Source: a virus. Taken from it: a stretch of 64,000 bases of DNA. The notes under the pieces were generated by a model, which had not been told where the DNA came from, searched no databases, and saw only the letters and a list, made by a program, of their open reading frames with translations. The position numbers and the translations under genes are program-made. Location of the stretch: IMG/VR virus record IMGVR_UViG_3300036985_001643, positions 1 through 64,000 of that record, one strand, 5' to 3'. Below, one piece after another: positions 37,694 through 54,900 of the stretch. Every line of letters begins with the position of its first letter. The first letter of the stretch is position 1.

Positions 37694-40486
37694 ATGGCAT
37701 TTACTCCCTATAGTACTCCAATACAATACGAATACAAACCGTTAAACTTAATGGGTTTCGCAGCTCCTTTAAGCGAAATGCAAAAGGAATTTGATACTAC
37801 TACTTCTGCAATTGACGAAGCAGATGTAGACTTGTCACATTTAGATTTAGGAAAGGATCCTGAAAAAGCTAAAGCTTTAAAAGAATTATATCGAAGTAAA
37901 ACAGAAGAATTAGCTAAAAACTTATATACTTCTAAAAACTATAGACAAGCTGCGTCTAAGTTAAAAGAATTAAATCGTTTATTTCAAACAGATCCTGAAA
38001 AGTTAGCATTAGAAGCTAATTACAAAGCTAGACAAGAATATCATAAAGCTCAAAAAGAACGTATTGATAAACCAGGTGGTATTACTAGAGATCAATACTA
38101 TGAAGATATTGCTCGTAAAGATAGGGAGTATGTCAGTAAAGAAGGAACAAATTGGAAAAACGATCCTAATTTAGAAACAGGAGATTATAATCTTTATGGT
38201 ACTAAAGCTAGACTTGAAGACTTAGAAAAAGAATTTCAAGAAATTTCTTTTAAAGTAGCAAGTGCTGTATCTGGAGATAAACGTACAGGAGCTTTAAAAG
38301 AAATGGGAATAGATCCTGAGTTAATGGATAAACAGTATTCTCAAACAATCATTGATGAACGAGATCCTAAAAAAGTACAAGTTGCTGTAGAGAATTATTT
38401 AAAGACTTTACCAAGATTTAAAAATTGGGCATTGGAAGTTGCTGATTATAAATATGATGCTTTAGCACAAAACCCTGAAGCATTAAAAGAAAAAAATGAT
38501 GCATTAGCTACTAGTGCTTTAAAAAGTATTGATGCTCAATTAGCTAGTTTAGAAAAATCTGCTAAAAAAGATAAAGCCGTTTTAAACAGTGATGAATATA
38601 AAGAATTAGTAGAGTTTAAGCAAGAGTTAGAGCAAGGTAAAACTACAGGAGAATATGATAATGATTTAATGTCTTCTTTGTATAAACAAGAACACTTAGG
38701 TAATGTTTACGACATGAAAGCATTAGGAGAAGTGTTTAAGTATAAAAACGTTGATGTTAACTACAGTTGGAGAGCTATACCAAAAGAAGACACAGGAGAT
38801 GGTGGTGACGGAAGTGATAATTCTTTTAGTTCAGAAACAGGATACTTTATTCCTAATTCTGAAGAAAAATGGTCAATTGATGCTTTAGCTACTAATAAAA
38901 ACAATAGTGCTAAAGCTCTATGGGGTGTTGTAGGAAAAGTAAACGATTTAGTAAGCGGTAATGTTAGAGCAGTAGTAATGGGAGGTGATAAAAATTCTGC
39001 TTCTTATAAAAAGTTATTACAAGATCCTTCTGCTATTAGAGCAAGACAAGCACAATTACTTGGAGCTATTTCTGAAACTTTAGAAGGTGGAGGAGATTGG
39101 AAAGCCTTTAAAAATAAGGCTGCACAAAAAGGTCTTAAAATGGAAGACGGTAGAGCATATACTATTTGGAAAAGTTTAACTAAAAACGGTAATCAAGGTA
39201 TTGCTGATTTTAAAGCTTCTATAGATGCTACTGAAGAAGACGCTAATCAATATATTAATTCTCAAAAGTTATTAAACACTATTCAAAAGAATGTAACTGA
39301 AACACAAGAATTTAAAAGTTTTGCTAATACATTAGGTTCATATGTACCTGGTGATACTGAATTAGGTTACAATTCAGGTATAGGTCAAGATTACGTACCA
39401 AGTAGAGCTGATGAAGAACGTGATAAAAAAGCACAAAAATTATTTAACCCTGATTCATATAGTAAAGAAGCTTTAAATAAAATAGGTTTTATATCAGGAT
39501 CATCATTTTCAAAAGCATTAGGAACTGTTTTCAAAGGATTTACTAAATACTTAAGTATGGATCAAGTGGCTCAATTACATGGTTATAAAAATGCTTTAGA
39601 CGCTGCAAATAAAGGATACGACTTTGCAGGGTTTAAACCTGTTATTAATGCAAAAGGAGAACTAGGAAGTACTAATATTATTTGGGGTGATGCTAAATAT
39701 ACAGGAAAAACAGCTCCTCAAATATTTCAAGAAAAACAAAACGAAGTTTATAGTAAAGGATTAGTAGCTAATGAGATGTCTTATCGTTTTATTAATGATA
39801 AAAATTTAGATAAACAAATGTCTAAATTCTTTTTAAGTGCTGGAGACTTAGCTAGTTATGTACCTGCTTATAGTAAAAATTGGAAAAATGTACCAGGTTT
39901 TACAGAGGAAGGTGGTTTAGCTGCAGGTACTAAATTAAACATTAACGAAAATAGAGCTCCTAAAATAGTAATGCACGGTAATCAAATGTTATACGAAATT
40001 CCTATTTCATACGAAAAAGATGGAGTATCTACTGAGACTACTGTTACTGTTAAACCTAAAAAAGGAATGAATGTCAGACACGATAAATTATTAAAAGATT
40101 TAGATTGGGCGTCAGGTGGAGGAACAGCTACAGAAGCTGCTGATAGTGAAACTAATACAATGATAAAAGCTATGAGATTTGATAACAAATTTCAAAACAA
40201 TAATTTATCACCTCAATTAATACAGTCTATTGATGTAGCTAAAGGACAATCTCCTGTAGAGTTATTCTCTGCTCCTTTTAGTAATACTACAAAATTAGTA
40301 GTATACAAAGCGAATACTAATGGTACAGATCCTTCTTTAAACATAGCTCAAGTAGATAAAAATTCAGGAAAAGTATTAGGTTATCTTAATAACCCTAAAA
40401 CGGGAAAACCTTTCTACACACACGCTGATGATCCAGAAGCTTACGTTGAAGTAAAAAATCTTATAATGCAAGCTTTAGGAGATTAA
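37694..40486 (+). CDS. ejected cargo protein 2
   Basis: Y.P..Y.P N-terminus followed by a helical domain, typical of the second crAss cargo gene. Confidence 0.6.
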   Translation: MAFTPYSTPIQYEYKPLNLMGFAAPLSEMQKEFDTTTSAIDEADVDLSHLDLGKDPEKAKALKELYRSKTEELAKNLYTSKNYRQAASKLKELNRLFQTDPEKLALEANYKARQEYHKAQKERIDKPGGITRDQYYEDIARKDREYVSKEGTNWKNDPNLETGDYNLYGTKARLEDLEKEFQEISFKVASAVSGDKRTGALKEMGIDPELMDKQYSQTIIDERDPKKVQVAVENYLKTLPRFKNWALEVADYKYDALAQNPEALKEKNDALATSALKSIDAQLASLEKSAKKDKAVLNSDEYKELVEFKQELEQGKTTGEYDNDLMSSLYKQEHLGNVYDMKALGEVFKYKNVDVNYSWRAIPKEDTGDGGDGSDNSFSSETGYFIPNSEEKWSIDALATNKNNSAKALWGVVGKVNDLVSGNVRAVVMGGDKNSASYKKLLQDPSAIRARQAQLLGAISETLEGGGDWKAFKNKAAQKGLKMEDGRAYTIWKSLTKNGNQGIADFKASIDATEEDANQYINSQKLLNTIQKNVTETQEFKSFANTLGSYVPGDTELGYNSGIGQDYVPSRADEERDKKAQKLFNPDSYSKEALNKIGFISGSSFSKALGTVFKGFTKYLSMDQVAQLHGYKNALDAANKGYDFAGFKPVINAKGELGSTNIIWGDAKYTGKTAPQIFQEKQNEVYSKGLVANEMSYRFINDKNLDKQMSKFFLSAGDLASYVPAYSKNWKNVPGFTEEGGLAAGTKLNINENRAPKIVMHGNQMLYEIPISYEKDGVSTETTVTVKPKKGMNVRHDKLLKDLDWASGGGTATEAADSETNTMIKAMRFDNKFQNNNLSPQLIQSIDVAKGQSPVELFSAPFSNTTKLVVYKANTNGTDPSLNIAQVDKNSGKVLGYLNNPKTGKPFYTHADDPEAYVEVKNLIMQALGD

Positions 40487-40497
40487 ACTAAATTTAG

Positions 40498-40505
40498 TAT
40501 ATTTG
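40498..40505 (+). promoter_or_regulatory. TAnnTTTG -7 element upstream of the giant RNAP-containing gene
   Basis: TATATTTG in the short intergenic gap, 19 nt before the ATG at 40525. Confidence 0.55.
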
Positions 40506-40524
40506 TTAGATAATATTATACCTC

Positions 40525-43500
40525 ATGGCAAAGAAAAAAATTGTTCCCCCACCACCAAGTCCTGTTAGGTTACAGGCTTTATCTTTAGATACTAAATCAG
40601 ATAAAACTTTAGGATATAATTCAGATATTATTGACGAAGTAGGTGCAGGAGAAGAGGCAGACAGTGGTGTTATGCAAAAACACTACGCTCAAAAAGATGC
40701 TAATTTTTTTGATCCTTATGAGGATTATGTAGATAGAAAAACTTTACATGGTGGGCAATTTGATATAGAAGAATTAAATACTATTAGAGCAACTAATCAA
40801 TCTAATTGGGAACAAGCAGGTCATGCTGTTGCTAGAGTTGCTACTAACATTGTACCTCAAATTATATCAGGGTTTGCTTCTATGGTAGATTTACCAGGTT
40901 ATATAGACGCTGAACATGCTGCTAGTAATAAGATTGTCAATTGGGCAATGGATTTAAAAAAGGAAGTTGATGAAGATTGGTTTCCTATTTACGAAGAAAA
41001 ACCTGGACAATCTATGAGTCTTTCCGATCCTGCTTGGTGGATGTCAAGAGGTTCAGGATTAGTAGAATCGGTAGGTTCTTTTCTTGCTCAAGGTTTTGGA
41101 GTAGGTAAAGTAGTTTCTTTAGGAGCAAAAGGAATAGGTAGTGTTTTACAAGGTAAGAAGTTATTCGCAGCTTTAGAGGCTATACCTGGAGTTACAAGTG
41201 GAGCAAACGTAGCTAAAAGAATAGGAGGAGCTACTCAAAGTTTAACTACAGCTGCAATGTTAAATCAATCTGAAGCTGTAATAGAAGCTACTCAAGTATT
41301 TAATGATACTTATAAAGCTAGACTAGACGAAGGTTGGGATTATGCTAAAGCTAAAAAAGCGGCTGCTGAAGCTGCTTCTACTACTATGAATCTTAACAGG
41401 ATTAATATCTTGTTAAACTTAAGTTCTGCTACAGCGTTCTTAAAAGGACAAAAGTATACTAGACAATTATTAAAAAACCCTACGTTAGGACATACTTCAA
41501 AAGAATTAGTAAAAGAAGGTTCTCAAGAAGCAGTTGAAGAGTTAATCAATCATGTTGCTTCTAAAGCAGGTATGGCTAAAGGAGCTGAGAAAAATTATAC
41601 TTTTGAAAATGCTTTAAACGATATCCATTCTATGGAAGGTTTAGAAGCTGCATTTTTAGGAGCTATTGGAGGTATTGCTCAAACAGGTGGTACTAAAGCT
41701 TTAGAATACAGTAAGTATGGACCAGGAAGTACTACAGACGAATCAGGTGTTAAGATAAGTAAAGTACAAGATGCTCGTAATAGATACCAACAACAACAAG
41801 AAGTTATTAACGAATTAAAGGATAAAGGTGTTAAAATCACAGATGCTTTAAATAGTGTTAAAGAACAACTTGTATTTGAAGAAAAATTAAATGCTGCTTA
41901 CGCAAGTGGTAACGTAGAAGAGGTTAAAACTTTACACGCTCAAATGTTTGAGAATGTAGCAGCTAAACATTTTTCTGCAGGTACTACTGAAGTATTAGAA
42001 AACTTATTAAAAGCAGAGTCTCAAAAAGATCCTGAAGAAGTAGGACAAGACTATATTGATAGAGCTAAACAAGCTGTTAAAGATTTAAGAACCTTAGAAA
42101 ACATCTATAACAATGCTGAAGAATACGCTAATGTAGATGAAGTATATAGAAATAGAGCTAGTAAATTAAGAGCAGAAAAAGTTGTTCCTGAGGCTACTAC
42201 GTTACAAAAAGAATCTGAGTTCCAACTTAATCAAGAAGTTGACGCTATTGCTAAAAAACACATGTTTGATAGAGAGCGTCAAGTATTAATTAAGAAAAAC
42301 GGAGTAGTAGTAGACACAGAAACTAAAACAGAGAAAGCTCCTATTACATATTCTCTTTCTGACTTAGAAAACAATACTGGAGACACTGATGCTAACAAGG
42401 CTGTATATGAGAAATTCTTAGCAGAAGTAAAAGCATTACCTTCTTATGAAAGTACTAATTTTTATACTGAACAATTAGATGCTTTACAAAAGCAAATAAG
42501 AGATTTAGATAAAGATTATAAAAATATTACTTCAGATGCTTATCAAAAAACAGCTAAAGCTAAAGCAGCTGAAAAAACTAAAGTAGAACAACTTACTAAA
42601 GATTTACCTAAAGTATCTACTATCTCTGAAGTAGAAAAAATGAAAGAATCTACTACAGATAAAGACTTTCACAAAGCTGCTGATGCTAAAATCGAAGAGA
42701 TCAAAAAGAGTAACGATGCTCAAGCTAAACAGAAGAAGACTCAAGCTACAGTTGCAGAGCTTAACACTAGAATAGAAAAAGCTACTGAAGAAGAATTAGA
42801 AGGGTTATTAGAAGAAATTAATAATGCAGAATTAAGTCAAACACATAAGACTAATCTACGTAACGCTTACGATAGAAGAGCAAGTATACTTAACGGTACA
42901 CCTGTAGCTGTATCTCCTGAAGAAGAAAACCCTTTAGGTGCTTTTGGTTTTACTAATAATAACCCTAACGATACAGCAGAGGAAATAAAAAGAGAAGAGG
43001 AATCTCGTGCTACTAATCTTCCTAAGGATTTACCTAATCCTAAAACAGAGACTAAAGATGTAGAACAACAAGTTGCTGATACAGCAACTAAGTTATTAGA
43101 AACAGATACTACTAGAGTTACAGGACAAGATACTCAAGGTAACTTAACTTATGCTTACGGTAAGTCTACAGAAGGTCACAACTCTGGAGCAGTATTAAGT
43201 AGAGAGTTTACACAAACAGAAAATGGAGGAATAGTAACAAGAGAGGAATCTACAGATGATATAGAAAATCTACAAGTGTTAGATCCTGAAGTATTACAAT
43301 CAGGTACTCCGTTAATAATGGAAGTAGATACTGATTACATAGGTCCTAAGTATGATCCTTCTTCTAGTACTAGAGAAACTACTTCTTGGGTAGATAGATT
43401 AGCAGTGTTAAAAGCTAAAGCTGAACAACAAGGTATTCCTTTAACACAGTTAAAGGAGTATATTGCTGAAGTACCTATTAAGGTAACTATGGAAGACGGT

Positions 43501-46500
43501 ACTACTGTATTCTACGTACACGATAATGCTTGGTTTAGAGAAGAAAACCTTGACAATACACCTGATGCTATTGCTCAAGATAAAGCTAACAACTTTAAAA
43601 TCAGAGAACAAATAATCAAAAAAGGTAAAGTTACTACTAAAGTATCTTATAAAAGTTTTGGTCATTTATTCAGAGCTTACGATGGCTCTAAGATTACTAC
43701 TTCTGAAGCAATGCCAGATAGTGACTTAGCGTTATCTGTTTGTAAGAATGAATCTTTAGATTTTACAAAAGGTAAACTATTACCAACTACTTTACAAGAA
43801 GGTAGAACTTATGCAATAGTACCTGTAGGACCAGATACTTACTTACCTGTTCCTTTAGAAAGAGCTCCTATTACTCAAGAGATAGTTGATTCTATTATGA
43901 TTGCTGTAGAGGCTCACCTTTCAGGTGACACTGAGAATCCTGTTGTACAGGCTATCGGTAACTCTAACTTAGGCTTAGACATTACTACTACTGAAGGTTT
44001 AAATAAATATGTTCAACAATTTATCTACTTGTATCCTACAGAGAAACAAGAAGGTATTGAGAATCTTTTAATTAACCAAGGTGGTTCTAAAAGTACTTTG
44101 TCTTCTAGTAGACCTATTATTGCAATAACAGCAACAGGTATCGAGTTTGGTAAACCTGGTGTACAAATGGGTTCTTTTACTAATCAAGATGGTGTTAAAG
44201 TACAATCTTTTGCTGTAGTTCTTTCTAAGAACTTTAAGAAAGATGCTAAGACTACAAAAGGTTTAGCAGCGTTAAGAGCTATCTTAGAAAGTGGTAATAT
44301 ACTTTCTCATACTCGTTTAGAAAACTTACAAAAGAATCTTGACAGTGTTATCTTATTAGATAACCAAGGAGCTACTAGAACTATTAAGTACTCTCAACAA
44401 GTAAAAGATTCTACAGTTACTAATCTACGTTCTATTAATATAGGTACAGAGGAAGCACCTAAGTATGTGTATACTATACAACCTACTATTAAGTTTGATG
44501 TAGCGTTTGCTAAATTAGATAAAGTTAAAAAAGCTAGTTCTACTACTAAGAAAAAAGTTACTGTTCCTAAAGTTACTGTAACTCCTGTTGCTACTAAAAC
44601 TACTATTCCTGTTACTACTACAGTTGCTGTATTACAACCAAATGATCTTCAACTTAATGTATCTGCTACTACTAAAAAAGCAGGTATGGATTCTATTACA
44701 AAGCAAGATTCTAGCATAGAGTCATTTGATGAAAATAAGTTTATCAGAGTAACAAAAGCTAATGCAGATGATGTTAATGGTAAATATTATGCTATTGATA
44801 ATGGAGTACTAAGAATAAGAATTAATGGAAAAGATGCTGTTTCAGGCAGAACAGGAGGAGCAACCCAAATAAGTGTTAAAGTCCCAGTAGGATTTAATGA
44901 AAAAGTCTTTGCGGAAAAACTTAAAAACATAAGTCATAAAGACGGTGTTACTACTGATAAAGCTGTACAACAAGTTGTTAATGATGTTAGAAAAGCAATC
45001 ATAGAAGCACAATCAACTTCCGCAACTACTTCTACTATAGAAGCTAAGAAAGCTGATATAGAAAGAAGAAGACAGACAGGAACTAATGTTAGAGGTACAA
45101 CTTATAAAGGAGAAACTACTGAAAAAGATGAATTAAAAGTTACTAAGTATTCTGAGTTTTTTCCTGATGGAAAAAGGATCTCTAAAGGAGGTAGAATAAT
45201 GTTACCTGCTGAATTTATAGAAGAGTACAATATAACTGATCAAGATTATTTAGATAGTCTTGAAGGAGCTACAGAAATAAGAATATATGAAGTAAGAGTA
45301 GGAAAAGATGGTAGATCAGGTATAAGCATACAAGGAACTTTTCCAGAAGGAAACATAGAAACGGATGTTGCTGGTACAGAACTAACTGCTTTAAGTGAAA
45401 CTCGAGATGACATAGAAGCTCAAAAAGCTGATGTAGAAAGAAGAACTACAAAAGTAATATCTTCAGAAATTGTAGAAAAAGGGAACAGAAAAGGTCAAAC
45501 AAGAACAGTAACTCAAACTAATTCTATAAAAGATGTAGAAGGTACAATAGTAAGTGTAACAGAATATGAAGCAAAAGTTGGAGATACTACTATCACACTG
45601 GGAGGTAAATCAATGACTGTTAAAGAGTTCAAAGAAGAATTTCCATTAGATGAGGATTATGAAGAAATATTTGCAAGTTGGCCAGATTTAAATGATGATA
45701 CAATAATTACAGTAAGAAAAGTAAAAAGAACGCCTACTAACTCAAGGTATAAAACTGTTGTGAATATTTTCAACCCTGTGTTAGGGGGTGAGATGGATAT
45801 AACTATTAAAAAAGATGATACTAAATATGATGCAGAACTAGCTGCTTTAAAGCAACCTGTTGCTGGTAAACAAGTTCAGATAGATGATATAGAAAGAAGA
45901 CAAAGAGTGGCTGATATAATTACATCTCAGTTTGAATTAGGTGTTGAACTTCCAAAAATTTTAGAAACATTAGCTGAACAAGGTTATGTAGAAAAGATTA
46001 ATAATAGTGCATTTTTTAAACAAAGTGTTGGTAGAGATGCTATAGTTTTTAATATTGATGGTGCAATAGTACCTATATATAGAAGCTCAGAAGGAACAAG
46101 TAGTAAAACAAAAGGTAAGTGGTATCCTTTTTTCTTTAATGCAGGAGACTGGTTAGTTAAAGGAATGGCTGATAGTTATAAAGATGGTTACAATAATCCT
46201 ATTATTAAACAAATATTAAATAGTTTAAATACTAATTATACCTATGACAAACCAATTGCAAAAGTAAATGGTAACAATAAAGAGGTATTAGTATTATTAG
46301 GTCTTGAAGGATTTGATGAAGAAAATAATGGTATCTATGATTACCAAAATTATCTTGCAGCATCTATAGTATTAAAAGATTGGCAAAGTAAATTAGGTAA
46401 TATTGATGTGTCAGGTTATCAAGAGTATCTTGATGGTGCATTATCTGGGTTAATAAAAGCTAATCCAACTTTAAAATCAGAAATAGAAAGTGCATTTAAA

Positions 46501-49500
46501 ACTGCATCAGATAGTTTTGCAGAACTAGCTGCTTTAGAACAAAGCACAAGTGTTGTAAAAACTCAAAAAACAGAATTAGAGAAAGTAGAACAGGTTAAAG
46601 ATGTAGTAATAAATGGAGAAAAATATTCATATTATCCATTAGCTGTAAGCCAATCTTCAGGAGCATCTGTGTTAATAGCAAACAAAAAATCTATTTTAAT
46701 ATCAGACGATTATGGAAATATTTCTGAGTTAGAAACAGCTGAAGAAAAGATTACAGAAAACGATATTACAGCAGGTAATATTTTTTACATGACTGTAGAA
46801 AAAGGAGTTCCTAGAATTGTTTCAATAGAAGAAAGTTTACCTGAATTAGGTAATGAAAATGGTTTAAGAACTTATTCAATGAGAATAACTTCTTATGACG
46901 CAGGAGGATCAAAAGAAATAGAGTCAGGAATTGGTGATTTAGGAAAAATAAAATCATTAGAAAGTAGTATTGGTAAAAGTGATCTTAGTAAAAAAGAATT
47001 AGCTTCAGAGTTAAATAAACTAGGAGTAAAGAAATTAAAAGTAAAGCAAGGACTTATTGTACCTACAATACCTTCAATTACAAATCAAGGAAACTTTGAA
47101 GAAGATAATACTATTGAGTTACCTAACGATTTAAAGATAGATGCTGCTATTACTTTTACATCTAGTAATGTTTTTCAAAAAACTTTTAAATCTATAACTA
47201 CAGCAATTGTAGCAAGTAAGTTGCAATTTACTAAACCTGGTAGATTTATAACTAAAGAAGGAACTTTAACTAAAGAAGGTGAAGAAATATTAAAAAAATT
47301 AACTTCTACTGCTTCTCCTAAAAATTTAAGAGAGTTAGATGCTTTAATTTCTAGCAACTTAGATAAACAACTTTGGGAAAACGAAAAAGAAAATAGTATA
47401 AACTCTATTGTTTTAGACGCTATTACTCAAAATAAAAAAGTAGCTAATTCGTTATTAAGTACAGGAAGGGTAAAATTTAATTCTGAATATAGTAATGCAT
47501 TTGTTGCTACTAGAGAAACTATTAGAGCTAAAAACAAAGAAAATATACAACAGTCCTTTAATAATATTCCAAGTTTAAAAGAATTAAATTCTCCTGCTTT
47601 AGAACAAACTACAGAGCAAGTTATTGCTAACTCTCCTATTCCTTCTGCTGAACAGCAAGTTGAAGAAGCTATTGATCCTGAAACAATCATAGAACAAGAG
47701 GCTATTCAAATGTTAGCTGATCATACAATTGAAGAAATTAATGGATTCTTAGACAATATTAATATAGGTTTAATCACTGAAGAAGATTTACAAGGACAAT
47801 CTTTAGAACAAGTTAAACAAGCAATTAACAGAGCTAAAGAAATACATAAAAAGAATAGTGAGAAGAAAACAACTTTCCAATTTCCTGGAAAAAAGAGTAT
47901 TACCGTTGATGGTAACACTAAAGATTCTACGGATATCTCAGAGGATACTTTTGATTATTTAATTAGTCCTCTAAACGAAGAACAAGTAGACGAGTTAAAC
48001 GCTGAGGTTGAAGCAATGATTATTAGAGGTGTAGACTCTGAGACACAACGTTCTTTAATTGCTTATATATCTGCAGAGATTATTCAAAAAACTCTTGCTG
48101 AGAAAGAAGTAGGTGGAGCGAGAACAGTGAAGGTTAAAGATATAATGGATACCAATAAAGAATACTTTATTGCCTTAGCAGAGTACTACAAGGAAAACGG
48201 TTTACCTAACAAAGCTAAAAGATTAGAAGCTGTTGTAGAACAGTTTGATAAAGTAGATAGGTTAGTACAACAATACATGAGTCTTCTTACTACAGGTACA
48301 GTAACTTCTAAACCAAAAACAGAAAGTGAAGAATCAGTAGGATTAGAGAAGACTTTATACACTGATGATTGGGCGTTTACTATCGATTCTAAATCTACAG
48401 CTTCTGGAGATTTAAAGAAATTCTTTGCTAATATACAAGCACAGGATAAAGACGGATTAAAACAAAACAGTCTAGGGTTAGAAGAGATAATGCCTTTTGA
48501 TGCAGTATACGATACTCTTCACGAGATATTAGCTAACAAACCTGCTGACTATACAACAATGATGGAGATTCTTAAGTTGTATGCAGAGAATTTCCCTTGG
48601 ATAAACTCTGTAGTAGAATCTATAGAAAAAGCTCCTGAACGTATTAAAAACGAATTTGTTTCAGATATGGCTAAACACCATATAGAGATGTCGTTTGTAA
48701 TGTGGGAAAGAAACAAAAACGGTACTTATAACCTACAACGTTGGTCAAGTAACTCTGCATCTAAAGAGAATAGATTAAGAGCGATGTGGCAATCTAACTT
48801 AAGAGGTGTAGGTACTTCTAGTAACATTGTAGTAGTTAATGACGAAGACGAATACGTATTTGACCACGTAGTTGTAGATAGATTAATAACTCAAGCAGAG
48901 AAGTTTGCTGAGGATCCTTCTGTGGTTACTAACGATGATATTGCTAATTGGTTAGGTCAATTAGGTATTGTACTTGCTGATGACACTTACGATGACTTAC
49001 GTAACGGTTTATTCAACAATAAAGGTAAGAAAACCTTTAACCAATTATTTACTCATTCTCAAGGGTTATTTAAAGTACTTACTGCTAAATTAAAAACTAT
49101 CAGTAATGGTAGACCTAAACCAGGAAAACCTAATACTAACTTAGTAGATAACGCTAATTTAATGACGGATAGTGTTGTTAAAGCATTGGCTAAATTAGAC
49201 GCTACTAATAGTCTTAATACTTCTTCTAACTCTTTCCAATCGGGTGGTAAAACTGTTTACTCTTACGGTAACAATAACTACTTAGTAAACCGTATGAGAG
49301 ACTTAACGGCTCACAATGGAGAAAAGTTTATTAACGAAGAACTTATTAAGCATTTACAAGATACTTCTTTTACTAAAGATAGTTTATGGTTAAAAGATAT
49401 TACTTCTACAGATGCTTTAGGAGAAGCTGCTAGAAGAGAGTTAGGGTTAAACTACTTATCGTTAGAAGCGTTAAAGAAAAAGTTTACACCTTCTCAAGAT

Positions 49501-51450
49501 GATCGTAAACTAAACAACTTGACACCTGCAGAACACGAGGTAATTAAGTTAGGTTTATTCTTAAATAATTCTGGACAAACAATAGGTAAAGAAACTAGAC
49601 GTAGTGTACAATTCTTTTATCCTACAATGTCGGATAAAACTACTATGTTGAGTATCACTGCTTTAGCTAGAGAGTTAACACTTGAAGAAGGAGTAATATC
49701 TAAAGACAACATCAAGTTGTTATTTGATGCTTTAGTACAACCGGAAATTAATCGTATTAGAGATAAACAGGCTTCTGACATTAAAGGTTACGAACCAAAC
49801 TACTTTTACTTTCTTCCTGCTCTTAATACTCACCCTATTACTATTAATGGTAAAGAGAAAACAGTGTTAGACTTTGTTAAAGATAAAGACGATAGTATTT
49901 ACTCACAAGAGTTTAAAGATCAAGTAGAGGCTAAAATTAAAGAAACATACGAACAGTTAGTAGAAGACAAATTAAAAGACTGGAAAACTTTAGGTATTGG
50001 TAAAACAGTTAAAGACAATAAAGGAAGAGTATCTGAACAATATATGTTTTTAAATTCTTCTTACATGGCCGATGTAGCTAAAGGTATAGGAGAAGCTAAA
50101 GTTAAATATGCAGCAATGGATTACATATTTAACAGTTTAATAGCTAACTCTGAATCGTTTAAGTTATTTGCTGGAGATCCTGCGTTGTATGCTAAGTTTA
50201 AAAAAGATAAAACTTTACAACAAAACCTTGAAGAAACTTTTATCAATATTGGTAAACGTCTTGCTGGAGATATTGCTCCAGGTATAGAGTTAGCCAACAG
50301 TACTAACAATAAGTACCTTCAAGTATTCTTAGAAGATAAGGAGTTAAACAGTAACAATGTTAACGATTCTGTGCAGTTAGAGTACTTCTCTAAGATAATG
50401 AAGGACTATAAGAAAAACTATTCAGGGATAGAAGGATCGGATGCTCAAGAGTATACTACTTGGCAAGAACACATCTACGTAATGAAACAATTAGGTAGAA
50501 TTACAGATAACCAATTTGAAGTATTTAATCGTAAGTTGACTGCTCAAACAGATAAAGCTGCTAAAGGTATTCCTTTAAGCAAAGCTGATAAACTTACATA
50601 CGAAGAGTTAGGTTTAGTAATGCAACCTATCAAACCTGTATACGTAGGTAACATCGCTGTAACAGATGACAACGTAGACAGAAGAATCTATATTAAGTCT
50701 TCTAGTTTCCCATTGATTCCTGAGTTAACTGCAGGTCTACAAATAGAGAAAGTACGTAAAGCTATAGAAAAGTTTGAAAAAGAAGTAGGTGGTAATATAT
50801 CTTCAGATGGTAACCCTGCTTTTGTTAGAGCTTCTTTTGGTACAGCCAACAAAGTAGGAGCTGTTAAAAACGCAGTAAAACTATTTGATGATAATGGTAA
50901 CGTAAATGATAACTTAGAAATTAAAGAAGAAAACTCTTTAGTACTAAATCGTTCAAACTTCCGTATCCAACAAGACGTACCTTACAAAAGAGAAAAGAAC
51001 GAAATCAACGTAGGTTCTCAAGAGATGAAGTTATTGTTCGTTAACTTATTAGACGTACAAATCGATGAGAATCACACAGGGGAACAATTGTTAACTAGTT
51101 ACAATCAAGCATATAAAGAATTGTACGAATATGCTAACGAAAAATTAGCAGAAAGATTAGGATTAGTTACCGAGACTACTTCTACTCCAGAGTTAGTAAG
51201 TTTGTTAGAAACTCCTACAACTACTGCTGTTGCTGATACTCACGCATTAAAAGAATCTTTGAAAGGTAAATCTACTGTACAAAATGTAATAGCTAAACAA
51301 AAATTCTCTGAAGAAAAAGGTGAAAATACAATAGATAGAGTTAAATTTATAGACAAAAACTTTGACAAGATTGTAGCATCTTTACTTAAAGACGAGCAAA
51401 TTAAAGTCTTATTCCAAGACGAGAATAACCAAAATAAAAAATGTGAATAA
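40525..51450 (+). CDS. giant polyvalent virion protein: N-terminal membrane/ejection region, variable cassette array, and N-terminal (beta-like) half of the virion RNA polymerase
   Basis: Gly-rich hydrophobic helices near the N-terminus. The C-terminal ~1100 aa carry crAss vRNAP motifs PTMSDK, F.GDPA.Y, KR, DAQ.Y.T, QPIKPVY, IKSS.FPL.P, FRIQQ and GSQ..KL. Confidence 0.8.
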   Translation: MAKKKIVPPPPSPVRLQALSLDTKSDKTLGYNSDIIDEVGAGEEADSGVMQKHYAQKDANFFDPYEDYVDRKTLHGGQFDIEELNTIRATNQSNWEQAGHAVARVATNIVPQIISGFASMVDLPGYIDAEHAASNKIVNWAMDLKKEVDEDWFPIYEEKPGQSMSLSDPAWWMSRGSGLVESVGSFLAQGFGVGKVVSLGAKGIGSVLQGKKLFAALEAIPGVTSGANVAKRIGGATQSLTTAAMLNQSEAVIEATQVFNDTYKARLDEGWDYAKAKKAAAEAASTTMNLNRINILLNLSSATAFLKGQKYTRQLLKNPTLGHTSKELVKEGSQEAVEELINHVASKAGMAKGAEKNYTFENALNDIHSMEGLEAAFLGAIGGIAQTGGTKALEYSKYGPGSTTDESGVKISKVQDARNRYQQQQEVINELKDKGVKITDALNSVKEQLVFEEKLNAAYASGNVEEVKTLHAQMFENVAAKHFSAGTTEVLENLLKAESQKDPEEVGQDYIDRAKQAVKDLRTLENIYNNAEEYANVDEVYRNRASKLRAEKVVPEATTLQKESEFQLNQEVDAIAKKHMFDRERQVLIKKNGVVVDTETKTEKAPITYSLSDLENNTGDTDANKAVYEKFLAEVKALPSYESTNFYTEQLDALQKQIRDLDKDYKNITSDAYQKTAKAKAAEKTKVEQLTKDLPKVSTISEVEKMKESTTDKDFHKAADAKIEEIKKSNDAQAKQKKTQATVAELNTRIEKATEEELEGLLEEINNAELSQTHKTNLRNAYDRRASILNGTPVAVSPEEENPLGAFGFTNNNPNDTAEEIKREEESRATNLPKDLPNPKTETKDVEQQVADTATKLLETDTTRVTGQDTQGNLTYAYGKSTEGHNSGAVLSREFTQTENGGIVTREESTDDIENLQVLDPEVLQSGTPLIMEVDTDYIGPKYDPSSSTRETTSWVDRLAVLKAKAEQQGIPLTQLKEYIAEVPIKVTMEDGTTVFYVHDNAWFREENLDNTPDAIAQDKANNFKIREQIIKKGKVTTKVSYKSFGHLFRAYDGSKITTSEAMPDSDLALSVCKNESLDFTKGKLLPTTLQEGRTYAIVPVGPDTYLPVPLERAPITQEIVDSIMIAVEAHLSGDTENPVVQAIGNSNLGLDITTTEGLNKYVQQFIYLYPTEKQEGIENLLINQGGSKSTLSSSRPIIAITATGIEFGKPGVQMGSFTNQDGVKVQSFAVVLSKNFKKDAKTTKGLAALRAILESGNILSHTRLENLQKNLDSVILLDNQGATRTIKYSQQVKDSTVTNLRSINIGTEEAPKYVYTIQPTIKFDVAFAKLDKVKKASSTTKKKVTVPKVTVTPVATKTTIPVTTTVAVLQPNDLQLNVSATTKKAGMDSITKQDSSIESFDENKFIRVTKANADDVNGKYYAIDNGVLRIRINGKDAVSGRTGGATQISVKVPVGFNEKVFAEKLKNISHKDGVTTDKAVQQVVNDVRKAIIEAQSTSATTSTIEAKKADIERRRQTGTNVRGTTYKGETTEKDELKVTKYSEFFPDGKRISKGGRIMLPAEFIEEYNITDQDYLDSLEGATEIRIYEVRVGKDGRSGISIQGTFPEGNIETDVAGTELTALSETRDDIEAQKADVERRTTKVISSEIVEKGNRKGQTRTVTQTNSIKDVEGTIVSVTEYEAKVGDTTITLGGKSMTVKEFKEEFPLDEDYEEIFASWPDLNDDTIITVRKVKRTPTNSRYKTVVNIFNPVLGGEMDITIKKDDTKYDAELAALKQPVAGKQVQIDDIERRQRVADIITSQFELGVELPKILETLAEQGYVEKINNSAFFKQSVGRDAIVFNIDGAIVPIYRSSEGTSSKTKGKWYPFFFNAGDWLVKGMADSYKDGYNNPIIKQILNSLNTNYTYDKPIAKVNGNNKEVLVLLGLEGFDEENNGIYDYQNYLAASIVLKDWQSKLGNIDVSGYQEYLDGALSGLIKANPTLKSEIESAFKTASDSFAELAALEQSTSVVKTQKTELEKVEQVKDVVINGEKYSYYPLAVSQSSGASVLIANKKSILISDDYGNISELETAEEKITENDITAGNIFYMTVEKGVPRIVSIEESLPELGNENGLRTYSMRITSYDAGGSKEIESGIGDLGKIKSLESSIGKSDLSKKELASELNKLGVKKLKVKQGLIVPTIPSITNQGNFEEDNTIELPNDLKIDAAITFTSSNVFQKTFKSITTAIVASKLQFTKPGRFITKEGTLTKEGEEILKKLTSTASPKNLRELDALISSNLDKQLWENEKENSINSIVLDAITQNKKVANSLLSTGRVKFNSEYSNAFVATRETIRAKNKENIQQSFNNIPSLKELNSPALEQTTEQVIANSPIPSAEQQVEEAIDPETIIEQEAIQMLADHTIEEINGFLDNINIGLITEEDLQGQSLEQVKQAINRAKEIHKKNSEKKTTFQFPGKKSITVDGNTKDSTDISEDTFDYLISPLNEEQVDELNAEVEAMIIRGVDSETQRSLIAYISAEIIQKTLAEKEVGGARTVKVKDIMDTNKEYFIALAEYYKENGLPNKAKRLEAVVEQFDKVDRLVQQYMSLLTTGTVTSKPKTESEESVGLEKTLYTDDWAFTIDSKSTASGDLKKFFANIQAQDKDGLKQNSLGLEEIMPFDAVYDTLHEILANKPADYTTMMEILKLYAENFPWINSVVESIEKAPERIKNEFVSDMAKHHIEMSFVMWERNKNGTYNLQRWSSNSASKENRLRAMWQSNLRGVGTSSNIVVVNDEDEYVFDHVVVDRLITQAEKFAEDPSVVTNDDIANWLGQLGIVLADDTYDDLRNGLFNNKGKKTFNQLFTHSQGLFKVLTAKLKTISNGRPKPGKPNTNLVDNANLMTDSVVKALAKLDATNSLNTSSNSFQSGGKTVYSYGNNNYLVNRMRDLTAHNGEKFINEELIKHLQDTSFTKDSLWLKDITSTDALGEAARRELGLNYLSLEALKKKFTPSQDDRKLNNLTPAEHEVIKLGLFLNNSGQTIGKETRRSVQFFYPTMSDKTTMLSITALARELTLEEGVISKDNIKLLFDALVQPEINRIRDKQASDIKGYEPNYFYFLPALNTHPITINGKEKTVLDFVKDKDDSIYSQEFKDQVEAKIKETYEQLVEDKLKDWKTLGIGKTVKDNKGRVSEQYMFLNSSYMADVAKGIGEAKVKYAAMDYIFNSLIANSESFKLFAGDPALYAKFKKDKTLQQNLEETFINIGKRLAGDIAPGIELANSTNNKYLQVFLEDKELNSNNVNDSVQLEYFSKIMKDYKKNYSGIEGSDAQEYTTWQEHIYVMKQLGRITDNQFEVFNRKLTAQTDKAAKGIPLSKADKLTYEELGLVMQPIKPVYVGNIAVTDDNVDRRIYIKSSSFPLIPELTAGLQIEKVRKAIEKFEKEVGGNISSDGNPAFVRASFGTANKVGAVKNAVKLFDDNGNVNDNLEIKEENSLVLNRSNFRIQQDVPYKREKNEINVGSQEMKLLFVNLLDVQIDENHTGEQLLTSYNQAYKELYEYANEKLAERLGLVTETTSTPELVSLLETPTTTAVADTHALKESLKGKSTVQNVIAKQKFSEEKGENTIDRVKFIDKNFDKIVASLLKDEQIKVLFQDENNQNKKCE
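45037..46542 (+). repeat. dispersed in-frame linker repeats (IEAKKADIERR and AELAAL)
   Basis: ATAGAAGCT.A.AAAGCTGAT.TAGAAAGAAGA at 45037 and 45412, with a partial copy at 45886. GCAGAACTAGCTGCTTTA at ~45832 and 46519, with a variant at ~45379. Confidence 0.85.
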
Positions 51451-51923
51451 TGGAAAAATTACTTACTGACGTAGAGCAAAAAGAATTAAATAAGTTTGGT
51501 AAATTAGAGTTAACAGCTTCACAAGCTTACTTACACCTTACTAATAGAATGAAGACATTGGGTTACTTTGGTGCAGAGAAGTTCTTTGCAGGTGAATCTA
51601 ACGATGAAAGAGAGCACTATGCTAAACATGAAGACTTTATGAACAAGTTTAATTGTGAATTAAGTGTTGAAGCATTGAGCCCTATTGCTTCTGATGTTAG
51701 TAACATTAAAGAAGCTTTAGAAATGGCTTACCAAATGGAGGTAGACTTATTAAACGAGTACGAAAAGTCTTGTAAACTTCCAGAGTTATCAATAAAAGTT
51801 GTACTTTTGTTACAAGAGTTTGTTGAAATACAAAGTGGTGCAGTTGGAGAATACGGAGATCTATTAGCTAGATTAACTCTAACAGACAACATGTTATTAT
51901 TCGATCAAGAACTAGGAAACTAA
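51450..51923 (+). CDS. ferritin-like protein
   Basis: 157 aa with EL.AS..Y, G...FF..ES.DE..H, AL..A...E and F...Q motifs of the ferritin four-helix bundle. It has a TAATG overlap with the upstream gene. Confidence 0.85.
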   Translation: MEKLLTDVEQKELNKFGKLELTASQAYLHLTNRMKTLGYFGAEKFFAGESNDEREHYAKHEDFMNKFNCELSVEALSPIASDVSNIKEALEMAYQMEVDLLNEYEKSCKLPELSIKVVLLLQEFVEIQSGAVGEYGDLLARLTLTDNMLLFDQELGN

Positions 51924-51933
51924 AAGTACAATT

Positions 51934-54900
51934 ATGGCTTGTCAATATTTTGTAAACGGAGAATGGATCTCTGAGGAACAGTTTAAAGAAGTTTTAAACA
52001 ATGGTTTATTAGATAATTTAGTAGCCAACGGTACTGTTAAAGAAGAAGGATTTCCCGTAGATAATACTAAACTCCTTAAAACTGAGACAGTTACTACTAC
52101 TAAAACAACTGTACCTGTAGAAAAACTAGCAGCAATCTTAGCAAAAGAAGTGAGTACTCGTTCAGGGTATCCATTAAACATGTTAAGTGCTCTAGAGTTG
52201 AAAGAAGACAAGTCAGACTTTAAAATTCCTTTATGGGCTTCTCCTTACGCAAGTAAGTTTGAGTCTTTATTAACTTCTTTAGTAAGTAATAAAGTAGTTA
52301 AACAAAAGTTTGCTGGTACATCAAGTGTATTAGGTTCGGAAGAAGGGTTTAGAATTAAACAAGGTGACGAAGCAGCAGGTAGTTTAAAGGACTCCTCTAT
52401 TGTATTTTCAGACAACTTTGATCCTGAGAAAGGTTTACAACCGATGAGGGTAGATCCTAAAACAGGTAAAATATTACCTGCTCAAATAATGTTACCTTTT
52501 AAGTTTAGAGACGAGTCAGGTAACATATTGTTTATCAACGATTTCCTTAAATTAGATTCTTCAGGAAGACCTTTAAGAACTCCAGACGGAAGAGTAACTA
52601 TTGACGATAGTAAATTACCTGCTAAATTAAGACAGTTATTTGGTTTCCGTATTCCTACACAGGAGCGTAACTCTATGGCTGCTGTAGAAATAGTAGGGTT
52701 TTTACCTGAAGCAATGGGAGATTTAGTACTAGCTCCTAGAGATTTTACTAAACAGATGGGTTCGGATTTTGACGTTGATAAGTTGTACAGTTACTTGTAT
52801 AACCACTTCTATAAAGACGGTAAATTATACACTAATTTCCCAAGTGATAAGAAGACTATTAAAAAACTAACAGATGCTGCTAAAGAACATTTAGCTACAT
52901 TGAAAAGTTCTTTAAAACTAAATAGTGCAGAACAAGCATTGTTAAATGCTTACATTGATAACAAGTTAGAAAAAAACGATGATAACGATCAAGACGAGTT
53001 GCTTACTAAAGCTACTACTCTTATCGCTAGACTTACTAATTCTCCAATAATGGAGGAGATAGAAAACGTTACTAACGATTTATCTATTTACAACAGAGCT
53101 TACAAAGCTTCTCGTCAAAATAAAATATTAGACATTCACTTATCAGTGATGTTGAGTAATAACCCTGAGGTTATTAAATCTATTATTGCATTAGATTCCT
53201 TTGGAGATTTTGAGCAATTAGCTCAAGACTTATATAAAGTAAGAAGTGAGCGAGGTTTAATTCCTCCTATTACCACTATTCTTTCAGATACTTATCAAAG
53301 AACTAAATACATTAACGCTACAGCAGGTAAAACTGGGGTAGGTTCTTTCTCTTTAGATTCTACTTTTAATGCATCTGCTCAAGGTAAAGAGTTGACCATC
53401 ATCAATATGGACGATGAGACTCAAACAAATGTATTTGGTACCCCTATAGAACCTAAGAATCCTACTGCTGCTGAAGTATTAGAAGCTAATATGACTGTTG
53501 CTGCTTTTGGAACTAACGTTTCTAAAGGAGATTTATCAGACAAATATACACTACGTTCTAGAAACTTAATCAACAAAGCTAAAGAAGAAGGTAGAGAACT
53601 TACAGAGGAAGAAAAAGATTCTTTAAAGATGAAGTCTACTATTATTAGATCTTTACAATCTACAGCTGTGGATAATGAAAAAGCTCAAATATTAGATAAA
53701 CTTAACATCAACGATCAAACTATGGATGCTGTTAGAGCCCTTACTATATTAGGGTTTGAAGAGAAAGAAATAGTAGGATTGATAACACAAGAGATTATTT
53801 GGGAGTTTACTGCAGCATTAAAGGATAACGGTTCTTCACTGACTCCTTTCCAAGCTAACGCTGCAGAAACTTTATTTATTGATTTAGTAAAGAAATACGA
53901 TCCTGAAGGTAAACTAGCAGAATTAAAACCTTACGAATTAGAAGCTTTACAAAGTGCTACTAGTGAGTCATTAATGAGTGACATCAATACTCAAACGTTA
54001 CAAGAGTTAAGCGTAGGACCAACACCAGATGCTAATCTTAGACAGTTAGCTGCTTTAGCTAAATTCCTTAAACTTACTCAAATAGGTAAAGATATTAAGA
54101 CCTTACAGTCTACTATAAATACTGATTCTAAAGGTGTTCCTAAATCTTTAGTAGAAACAGATGCTAAAGTAAAACAAATAGAAAGGTTAGCTGCTTCTAA
54201 CATCTTTAATGCTACTAAGTTGTTAGGAGAATATGAAGGATCTAAATTAGTTACACCTACTACTCTAAATGGTTTTGCTTCTAAATACGGTACTATGTTT
54301 GCAGATACTATCTACAAACAATATTTCCCTTATCATACTACAGGTTTTAAAGTATTAGTAGATGAGTTACTACAATATATACCTAAAGGTAAAAATGCTT
54401 CGTTAACTAAACAAGCAGAGTTACAATTAGAGTTAATGGACGCTGTTAAGTCTTTCCTTTATGGTAATGCTAATACAAACTTGTTTACAGAAAACCCTGA
54501 TAGTGAACGTGCTAGATTGTTTATAGACACTAAAACTAACAAAAGTTTAGCTACTATACTACAGTCAGTTTCTGAAGAAAAGTGGTATACTTCTAATGGT
54601 TTCCTTAATAAGTTATCGTTAGACCAACAAAAGAATGGTCAAGTTTCTAGAGTAAACTTCGAATCTGCTTCAGGAGAAAACTTAGACGAAAGAGATATCT
54701 ATGACGGGTTTAACTACTTGTTATCTAAGAATTTCCCTATTGGTACTTTTAACGGTATCGATTATACTTCTCGTATGTTGGCTCAAGATTTAGTAGCTTC
54801 AGCGTTCTTAGAAGGAGGTCAACAAGGTTCTAAACAATACTTGAAGTATGTACCTACTGCTTACCTTAAAACTATAGGTTTTGGAGATTACTTATCAAAT

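Follow-up and report, generated by a model that had tools for sequence, protein, structure and literature searches.

Why should one giant phage gene carry short, repeated motifs around stretches of protein that differ from each other in length and sequence? The question is raised by the first 64,000 nucleotides (nt) of the 79-kb IMG/VR virus record IMGVR_UViG_3300036985_001643 (CheckV completeness 62%), a stretch that is called the window throughout and that carries all of its large open reading frames (ORFs) on the plus strand; the parts of the gene at issue lie on it, too. Its gene at 40525..51450 encodes a protein of 3641 amino acids (aa), P0001, which by the ORF list, its translation, its homologs and its assignment to PHROG 16227 ("virion structural protein") can be regarded as a giant virion cargo protein. 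An earlier note on this DNA had proposed that the middle of the gene is an intragenic array of repeat-bounded domain cassettes, serving to shuffle injected effectors without a dedicated recombinase. According to our analysis, P0001 is probably a cargo protein with an insertion hot spot, in which cassettes are exchanged by homologous recombination at two kinds of conserved joint, termed opener and closer.

The tether between the two conserved halves of the protein is a hot spot for insertions. A search with the C-terminal core yielded 628 homologs, and the best 120 of these 628, with lengths of 2340-5099 aa, are the orthologs counted in the following. The length of the variable site was taken as the stretch between both cores and anchored on the cores; it spans 0-1010 aa in the 120 orthologs, the longest being that of the phage studied here. 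Where the site is empty, only a Pro/Thr/Ala-rich linker is found. Exactly one insert is present in many orthologs, in the order linker, S/T-DIEAKKADIERRRQEE, domain, INAKYDAELAALEQP, linker, and some possess near-empty forms with an opener and a closer but little or nothing in between. Most inserts are three-part cassettes made up of an opener helix, a variable interior and a closer helix, with TTDIEAKKADIERRRQEEL and KINAKYDAELAALEQPT as the consensus of the profile hidden Markov models (HMMs) for opener and closer, respectively. The variable site accounts for 7.3% of the residues of the 120 orthologs and harbors 136 of their 138 joint-motif matches. In 345 non-identical proteins, 122 opener-closer cassettes were found, the interiors of which comprise 12-324 aa (median 88.5). 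The 109 interiors of at least 25 aa fall into 68 sequence clusters, and the gap between a closer and the next opener does not exceed 10 aa in 15 of 16 cases. NUDIX, AAA_33 (P-loop kinase) and DUF7831 domains are encountered at the variable site of orthologs, while the longest orthologs have helicase domains elsewhere in the protein. The prediction that relatives differ in cassette content is borne out by these site lengths.

Within the whole 79-kb record, opener and closer motifs are confined to the P0001 gene, and the two patterns gave no matches in shuffled sequence. The repeats named in the earlier note are all present: the full opener copies at 45037-45069 and 45412-45444 are identical in 30 of 33 nt, a partial third copy matches at 79%, the closer core GAACTARCTGCTTTA is found at 45379, 45835 and 46522, and a weak copy (PALEQ) resides at 47593-47607. 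The latter is a true closer remnant, as shown by 29 nt (CTGCTTTAGAACAAACTACAGAGCAAGTT) that are the same as in a full closer inside L023, a JGI contig encoding a 3028-aa ortholog and the closest relative for which DNA is available. As each closer adjoins the next opener, the pair forms one 73-nt junction (repeat family D1).

The arrangement begins with the conserved N-terminal core (aa 1-1362, 40525..44610), which shares 92% aa identity with P0002 and P0003 and about 95% DNA identity with L023 up to position 44610. It runs into a Pro/Thr/Val-rich tether (44545..44640), at which empty-site orthologs possess a P/T/A-rich linker only; the tether contains the left breakpoint, 44610/44611, in a fine alignment to L023. 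Next comes unit 0 (44641..45027), an insert of about 130 aa seen in the translation that lacks an opener and is absent from L023, P0002 and P0003. Units 1 to 4 comprise approximately 121, 148, 222 and 353 aa. Unit 1 is made up of opener 1 (TSTIEAKKADIERRRQTGT, 45028..45084; opener HMM 32.0 bits, DNA repeat family D4), an interior with a GTNxRGTTYKGET... domain (45085..45372) that is 59-80% identical on the aa level to cassettes of other giant proteins, e.g. P0132, and a degenerate closer 1 (GTELTALSE, 45373..45399) with GAACTAACTGCTTTA at 45379 and matches to repeat families D1 and D2. In unit 2, opener 2 (RDDIEAQKADVERRTTKVI, 45403..45459; opener HMM 26.4 bits), a helix in the AlphaFold2 model, precedes a beta-rich interior (45460..45810), for most of which the AlphaFold2 block reaches a predicted local distance difference test score (pLDDT) of 78-88, and closer 2 (KDDTKYDAELAALKQPV, 45811..45861; closer HMM 25.9 bits), which includes the widespread 24-mer TATGATGCAGAACTAGCTGCTTTA. 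Unit 2 is the sole cassette of orthologs P0014 and P0068. Opener 3 is partial (QVQIDDIERRQ, 45871..45903; match to D4 at 45868-45901) and begins helix H2-18 of the unit 3 model. The interior of unit 3 (45904..46518) is an alpha/beta domain without annotation (SSxGTSxK..WYPFF..WLVKG), according to AlphaFold2, that is widespread with more than 100 representative clusters, and it is followed by closer 3 (AELAALEQST, 46519..46548; closer HMM 7.1 bits, GAACTAGCTGCTTTA at 46522). Unit 4 (46549..47592, about 350 aa) has scarcely any sequence relatives and exhibits weak NADAR-like signals in its C-terminal part. The terminal closer remnant and joint (PALEQTTEQV, 47593..47622) contain the right breakpoint, 47605/47606; identity to L023 DNA restarts at 47606 with the conserved C-terminal core (aa 2361-3641, 47606..51450), which is 96.4% identical to L023 in its gene part and related to FpV4 gp32 and, weakly, to phi14:2 gp077. 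Units 1 and 2 are diverged paralogs with 35% identity over 85 aa. The statement that boundaries are conserved as DNA while interiors differ is therefore correct for the joints but has to be restricted where the interiors of these two units are concerned.

The cassettes recur in other genomes. When aa 1491-2392 were scanned with HMMER against 1.84 billion representative proteins, the limits of the matches coincided with the limits of the units, mostly within about 10-15 aa. Units 1, 2 and 3 each turn up separately and at varied positions in many large proteins, the closest being 60-80% identical, and in most of the proteins found, the cassettes likewise lie between opener and closer. Units 1 and 3 share 66-70% identity with cassettes of P0132 and P0129, distant orthologs with cores merely 27-30% identical to those of P0001. 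In many other cassette-bearing proteins, the cassette constitutes the sole similarity to P0001.

Breakpoints can be read from closely related genomes. The clearest example is given by the contigs L007, L017 and L019, for the selection of which core homology was used and the motif was not. L007 and L017 carry unrelated interiors of 79 and 292 nt, respectively, but agree at 99.7% of positions in the 6014 nt upstream and at 98.7% in the 5887 nt downstream; identity stops inside the opener and restarts 1 nt before the closer. Between these same joints, L019 has a third interior. In the comparison with L023, identity amounts to 94.8% over window positions 39749-44610 and to 96.9% over 47606-53000, while the 2995 nt in between (44611-47605) correspond to 1150 nt in L023 with nothing alignable, i.e. 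they are replaced as one block. The right break is situated within the terminal joint/closer remnant, between ALEQ and TTEQV, and in L023 a P-loop cassette of 486 nt lies between 17-nt direct repeats (AAACTACAGAGCAAGTT) of the terminal joint. Interiors shared by otherwise dissimilar loci were collected at a threshold of at least 75% DNA identity. Among the resulting 82 cases, which are partly non-independent as they contain mirrored pairs and contigs fetched twice, homology ends inside the joint on the left in 58 of 70 and on the right in 52 of 77; a further 14 on the right end within 30 nt of the joint. L047 and L091 have a single segment of 445 nt in common that extends from opener to closer and is 100% identical; apart from this they match only by 29 and 37 nt between other joint copies. 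A different situation is met in L032 (5262-5467) and L069, where 100% identical flanks enclose a 204-nt in-frame indel inside a non-cassette domain, 210 nt away from an opener. Not all length variation in such genes maps to joints.

The joints are conserved not only as peptides but also as DNA. In invariant columns of the cores of L006-L019, codons are identical as often as codon usage predicts (0.44 observed versus 0.40 expected for Leu), and the synonymous sites of the cores are therefore saturated. The codons of the closer, GCA GAA CTA GCT GCT TTA, are position-specific, minor ones included. For its first Leu, 11 of 14 copies use CTA, a codon with a background of 0.118 (P=1.6e-8), and for its first Ala 12 of 12 use GCA (background 0.375), followed by GCT for the next two Ala and TTA for the second Leu. 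The Ile codons of the opener are ATA in 9 of 11 (first) and 10 of 10 copies (second) at a background of 0.325. In a cross-ascertained check, closers were analyzed in loci found via the opener and vice versa: GCA is used in 46 of 52 cases versus GCT in 48 of 50 four codons earlier, CTA in 23 of 52 versus TTA in 46 of 51, and ATA in 41 of 42. The exact closer 24-mer is present in 68 IMG/VR contigs, always in frame and within a long ORF (326 to more than 4000 aa, many cut by locus ends). An opener occurs 40-260 aa upstream in 50 of these 68 contigs, and just seven share cores with P0001. The opener 24-mer was detected in 76 IMG/VR stretches, and the closer 24-mer was absent from 185,579 prokaryote species represented by one genome each. 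One non-P0001 ORF from the contigs with the closer 24-mer weakly matches an "RNA polymerase subunit" of crAss001-like phages. Pfam and PHROGs gave no match for five other giant ORFs with joints, and Pfam searches with the neighbors of L048 and L075 remained blank. Taken together, the breaks in L007/L017, the ends of shared interiors, the repeats in L023 and the synonymous conservation support the proposal that the repeats act as in-frame recombination joints.

Several observations weigh against this reading or narrow it. The left break with respect to L023 falls into the Pro/Thr-rich tether after ...TIP and not into an opener or repeat, such that the claim of breakpoints at the repeats is sustained by L007/L017 and the right edge of L023 but not by its left edge. 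Some inserts lack joints altogether: unit 0, the stretches of NUDIX-carrying orthologs and the terminal P-loop domain do not show an opener. Opener copies within the P0001 gene have exact runs of only about 12 nt in common and are therefore a poor substrate for intragenic exchange; cassettes are indeed exchanged, as the term shuffling array implies, but the exchange that we see takes place between genomes and not within the gene. The loci with 24-mers were picked by motif, which the cross-ascertained codon and shared-interior tests control in part only, and the joint copies are related by descent so that binomial P values overstate their independence. Furthermore, all comparison sequences are metagenome assemblies and were compared as such, and the cassettes of the window are without established function.

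An alternative that we regard as unlikely, yet take seriously, is that opener and closer are maintained for a role on the protein level, either as peptidase cleavage sites that release the domains or as a structural clamp or unfolding handle for packing and ejection. DNA similarity and breakpoints would then be by-products of frequent exchange. The peptide motifs are in fact strongly conserved around unrelated interiors, and the closer ends in ...AALE and then gives way to a flexible P/T spacer. Embedded metallopeptidases have been proposed to cleave polyvalent proteins into their functional units (PMC5512222), and crassvirus cargo proteins must partly unfold for passage through the tail (PMC10172136). 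However, selection on the peptide alone does not account for the minor codons, CTA followed by TTA for Leu and GCA followed by GCT GCT for Ala, and Pfam did not reveal a peptidase domain in P0001. A role of this kind is compatible with recombination at the joints, and both may coexist.

A very improbable scenario is the formation of the array in place, by tandem duplication of a single helix-domain-helix module with subsequent divergence, the conserved ends representing its slowest-evolving parts and no exchange being involved. Units 1 and 2 are side-by-side paralogs and P0003 contains two tandem copies of one domain type, as this scenario would have it. On the other hand, the 68 clusters of interiors of at least 25 aa are unrelated, cassettes are 66-100% identical in genes that are otherwise unrelated or 27-30% identical, 99%-identical phages differ between the joints only, and synonymous sites are saturated in the cores but not in the joints. 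Duplication in place accounts for units 1 and 2, yet it leaves the overall diversity unexplained. That the swaps are artefacts of assemblers joining phage strains at shared short repeats is likewise highly unlikely. In its favor, every relative is an assembled contig, and co-occurring phages have the joints in common as repeats of 24-50 nt. Against it, usual sequencing reads and final assembly k-mers exceed the joints in length, L007 and L009 are identical although assembled independently from different samples, reading frames are all open across the junctions, and assemblies from JGI, ENA, NCBI and Logan show the pattern in hundreds of proteins.

Exchange by homologous recombination could be envisaged as follows. 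P0001 would be packaged into the virion as cargo of the RNA-polymerase-associated block, with a disordered Pro/Thr-rich tether joining its two conserved halves and serving as a hot spot for the insertion of accessory domains. In a cassette, the variable interior would be preceded by an amphipathic opener helix on its N-terminal side and followed by a closer helix on its C-terminal side, with the DNA of opener and closer providing short arms of homology. In co-infected cells, double crossovers inside the joints, made by general homologous recombination, might replace, add or remove an interior in frame, and whole cassettes with their joints may travel between otherwise unrelated giant genes. 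The window contains a domain that lacks an opener, three units with opener and closer, of which two are paralogous, and a unit of 350 aa whose terminal closer remnant is fused to the C-terminal core. Recombination would be driven by homology and would not need a special enzyme. In line with the earlier note, no integrase, tyrosine or serine recombinase, resolvase, RecT or RecA was found in the 79-kb record, which is, as mentioned, 62% complete. A shufflon-like mechanism with a site-specific recombinase was not retained, on the grounds that the searches revealed neither a tyrosine nor a serine recombinase and that opener and closer are direct and non-identical. A further step is conceivable and put forward tentatively, the odds being slightly against it in our estimation: environmental crassviruses may share a universal opener/closer "plug" by which any flanked domain moves in frame, through ordinary recombination, between giant cargo genes that are non-homologous and belong to different phages. 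Either selection for exchangeability or ongoing gene conversion would then keep the adaptor DNA uniform.

The assignment of P0001 to the cargo proteins draws on several lines of evidence. The crassvirus muzzle gene (28953-33251; PF25731 crAss_MUZ, 6e-149) and the gene for crassvirus cargo protein 1 (33254-37678; PF25725 crAss_CARG1, 1.3e-27) are followed by ORFs for proteins of 930 aa, 3641 aa, 157 aa (ferritin), 2365 aa (SF1 helicase) and 1379 aa. P0001 thus occupies the position of the giant cargo/RNA-polymerase-associated proteins of Crassvirales, in the block after the muzzle and cargo 1 genes. Its C-terminal part is 31% identical to gp32 of Flavobacterium phage FpV4 (4287 aa, annotated as virion structural protein), and the C-terminal core is weakly related to gp077 of Cellulophaga phage phi14:2 (23.6% identity, E=5e-15 in tblastn). 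The latter, a protein of 2180 aa from a member of the Crassvirales, is annotated as structural on the basis of tandem mass spectrometry proteomics. With FpV4 gp32 and phi14:2 gp077, homology thus extends to cargo or RNA-polymerase proteins of cultured crassviruses. In virions of PhiCrAss001, giant proteins of the corresponding block have been seen by mass spectrometry, and they are described as cargo that leaves the virion before or together with the DNA (PMC10172136). From the gene block, the homology to FpV4 and phi14:2 and the PhiCrAss001 proteomics we infer that an environmental crAss-like phage carries P0001 as a giant cargo protein. By homology to crassvirus cargo proteins, on which the terms "effector" and "injected" are based, its domains would enter the host together with the DNA, where they may serve host takeover or counter-defence.

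Database searches in other directions returned little. Sequence and profile searches of the PDB with both cores and the variable region did not identify a solved relative or a polymerase, the sole row being coiled-coil noise. The Pfam scan of P0001 gave no families above the cut-off, the best signal being NADAR (E=0.041), and no peptidase or metallopeptidase domain. A DNA search with the region against 50,697 GenBank phage records was without match. A single-protein scan of IMG/VR did not return a close relative; the alignment-based scan found relatives.

The variable part also stands out by its codon usage. C-ending codons account for 4.6% in the variable part (aa 1363-2360) compared with 7.1% in the N-terminal and 12.6% in the C-terminal core (chi-square P=6.5e-7), which agrees with the impression, gained by eye in the earlier note, that the region uses fewer such codons than the flanking core. 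In NAY codon families the C fraction is 0.149 in the variable part versus 0.303 and 0.468 in the N- and C-terminal cores, respectively. The two conserved halves differ in codon usage, too, as the G+C content of third codon positions is about 0.15 in the N-terminal core versus 0.19-0.29 in the C-terminal core.

Structure models are available for two of the units. The AlphaFold2 model of unit 3, built on an alignment of 67 sequences, has a pLDDT of 90.7 and a predicted template modelling score of 0.87. In this model the opener begins helix 2-18, and helix 195-224, of which the closer is part, joins two helices of the interior in a three-helix bundle. The model of unit 2 with its flanks (pLDDT 71) shows the opener helix, a beta-rich domain, the closer helix, a low-confidence coil and the next opener helix. 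According to the models, opener and closer are both predicted to be helices with a low-confidence spacer between them. Of the coiled-coil stalk that the earlier note proposed for display of a variable domain, the models bear out the two helices, their pairing being hypothetical. Foldseek did not find a PDB match for the models of unit 3 or unit 2, and the sole match reported by VIA-align for unit 3 was a generic three-helix bundle at the end of the unit (Z about 8). The unit 3 family (window 45883-46560; L001:6001-6318) has no Pfam model, and many of its members stand alone as proteins of 150-350 aa. The family motif is SSxGTSGK..WYPFFG..WLIKG, with S68, K75 and K93 as invariant residues. The family is also represented in structural proteins of the unrelated Cellulophaga phages phi17:2 (gp039) and phi4:1, and one member carries ART-PolyVal. 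For unit 4, just one marginal match (E 3.1e-4) reaches in among the 1.84 billion representatives. Its C-terminal part (aa 2220-2316) gives a weak signal with Pfam NADAR (PF08719; 14.6 bits versus a cut-off of 35.1) and with PHROG 1017; the nearest Atlas cluster is NADAR with a score of 0.80, which is under the reliable level. P0136, a candidate for NADAR after an opener, was discarded as it had no Pfam support at E<=1e-4 and no similarity to unit 4.

Some features of the neighborhood deserve mention. A second segment is replaced with respect to L023 in the 930-aa ORF (37694-40486), where about 420 nt (39317-39748) are found versus 382 nt with 90-95% identity on both sides; this upstream cargo protein therefore has a variable patch of its own. 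The two largest cargo genes are separated by the ferritin-like gene (51450-51923, 157 aa; PF00210, 2e-10), which at its start overlaps with the stop codon of the P0001 gene. Orthologs P0106, P0107, P0116, P0117 and P0119 (4261-5099 aa) include AAA_30/PIF1/UvrD_C helicase domains, while the corresponding domains reside here in the separate downstream ORF of 2365 aa (51934-59031), suggesting gene fusion or fission in the cargo block. A 500-aa ORF (20312-21814) contains a YadA head repeat (PF05658, 8e-6) and may encode a fiber or adhesin component of the tail.

Among known systems, P0001 resembles the polyvalent proteins described by Iyer, Burroughs, Anand, de Souza and Aravind in 2017 (PMC5512222). 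These are likewise giant multidomain proteins that are delivered with the invading DNA, as would be P0001 by homology, and in both groups domain content varies greatly among relatives. In P0001 at least five distinct units are lined up, and its orthologs contain NUDIX, AAA_33, DUF7831, helicase or nothing. NUDIX, AAA_33 and helicase are conflict domains of the polyvalent type, as is the ART-PolyVal of the unit 3 family protein. The enzymatic signature domains of polyvalent proteins (MPTase peptidase, methylase-helicase dyad, ART) were not found in P0001 by Pfam but are present in orthologs and the neighboring 2365-aa ORF. Recombinational variability of cassettes was raised as a possibility for polyvalent proteins and an analogy to polymorphic toxins was drawn, while conserved joints or linkers are not described and the word "linker" does not appear (PMC5512222). 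P0001 differs in that its cassettes have sequence-defined openers and closers conserved as DNA, that breakpoints map there and that a metallopeptidase was not detected. Like the giant proteins associated with RNA polymerase in crassviruses (PhiCrAss001 gp47, gp49 and gp50; virion RNA polymerase of phi14:2), P0001 belongs to a block after muzzle and cargo 1. In PMC10172136 and PMC7886860, length variation and occasional extra domains are reported for the variable, multidomain proteins of the crassvirus transcription block, but neither paper describes a cassette site or joints. The string "DAELAAL" was not found in a literature search of about 8.4 million papers and preprints.

The nearest mechanistic precedents are, by analogy, the glycine-rich motifs of T-even gp38 adhesins and the pre-toxin junctions of polymorphic toxins. 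In polymorphic toxins (CdiA with VENN, Rhs with PxxxxDPxGL), a conserved pre-toxin motif marks the exchange of C-terminal toxin cassettes, and "His box" recombination of gene 37 contributes to the modularity of T-even tail fibers. Polymorphic toxins share with the P0001 family a conserved junction, conserved also as DNA, at the in-frame edge of an exchangeable domain. They have one junction, a terminal cassette and a linked immunity gene and are encoded by cells, whereas here two different junctions surround an internal cassette, an immunity gene is lacking and the DNA motif occurs in viral contigs only. In T-even gp38, conserved glycine-rich motifs flank hypervariable segments (PMC3157838); there, as here, short conserved motifs part variable segments that are swapped between phages. 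Natural breakpoints in conserved motifs are a common trait, seen here in L007/L017/L019, at 58 of 70 and 52 of 77 ends of shared interiors and in L047/L091. The segments of gp38 are loops of 10-40 aa in one receptor-binding domain on the virion exterior, in contrast to autonomous domains of up to 324 aa from unrelated families that sit in an internal cargo protein and also in non-homologous genes.

Crassviruses rank with the most abundant of all known phages. Sequence-defined joints offer a simple way to list the accessory domains that they deliver at infection. Our small sample already contains 68 clusters, in which no Pfam family was hit where scanned, and neither of the two that were modelled matches a solved fold. 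Joints could also be used as natural in-frame landing sites for cargo-delivery studies in laboratory phage-host pairs. With their position-specific conservation of synonymous codons, they lend themselves well to the question of whether the potential to recombine can itself be under selection. Exchange at such joints offers a testable mechanism for the mosaic architectures of polyvalent proteins and, if the tentatively proposed plug exists, it would let crassviruses draw on a shared pool of accessory domains for injection, in a manner comparable to integrons but inside a reading frame and with no integrase.

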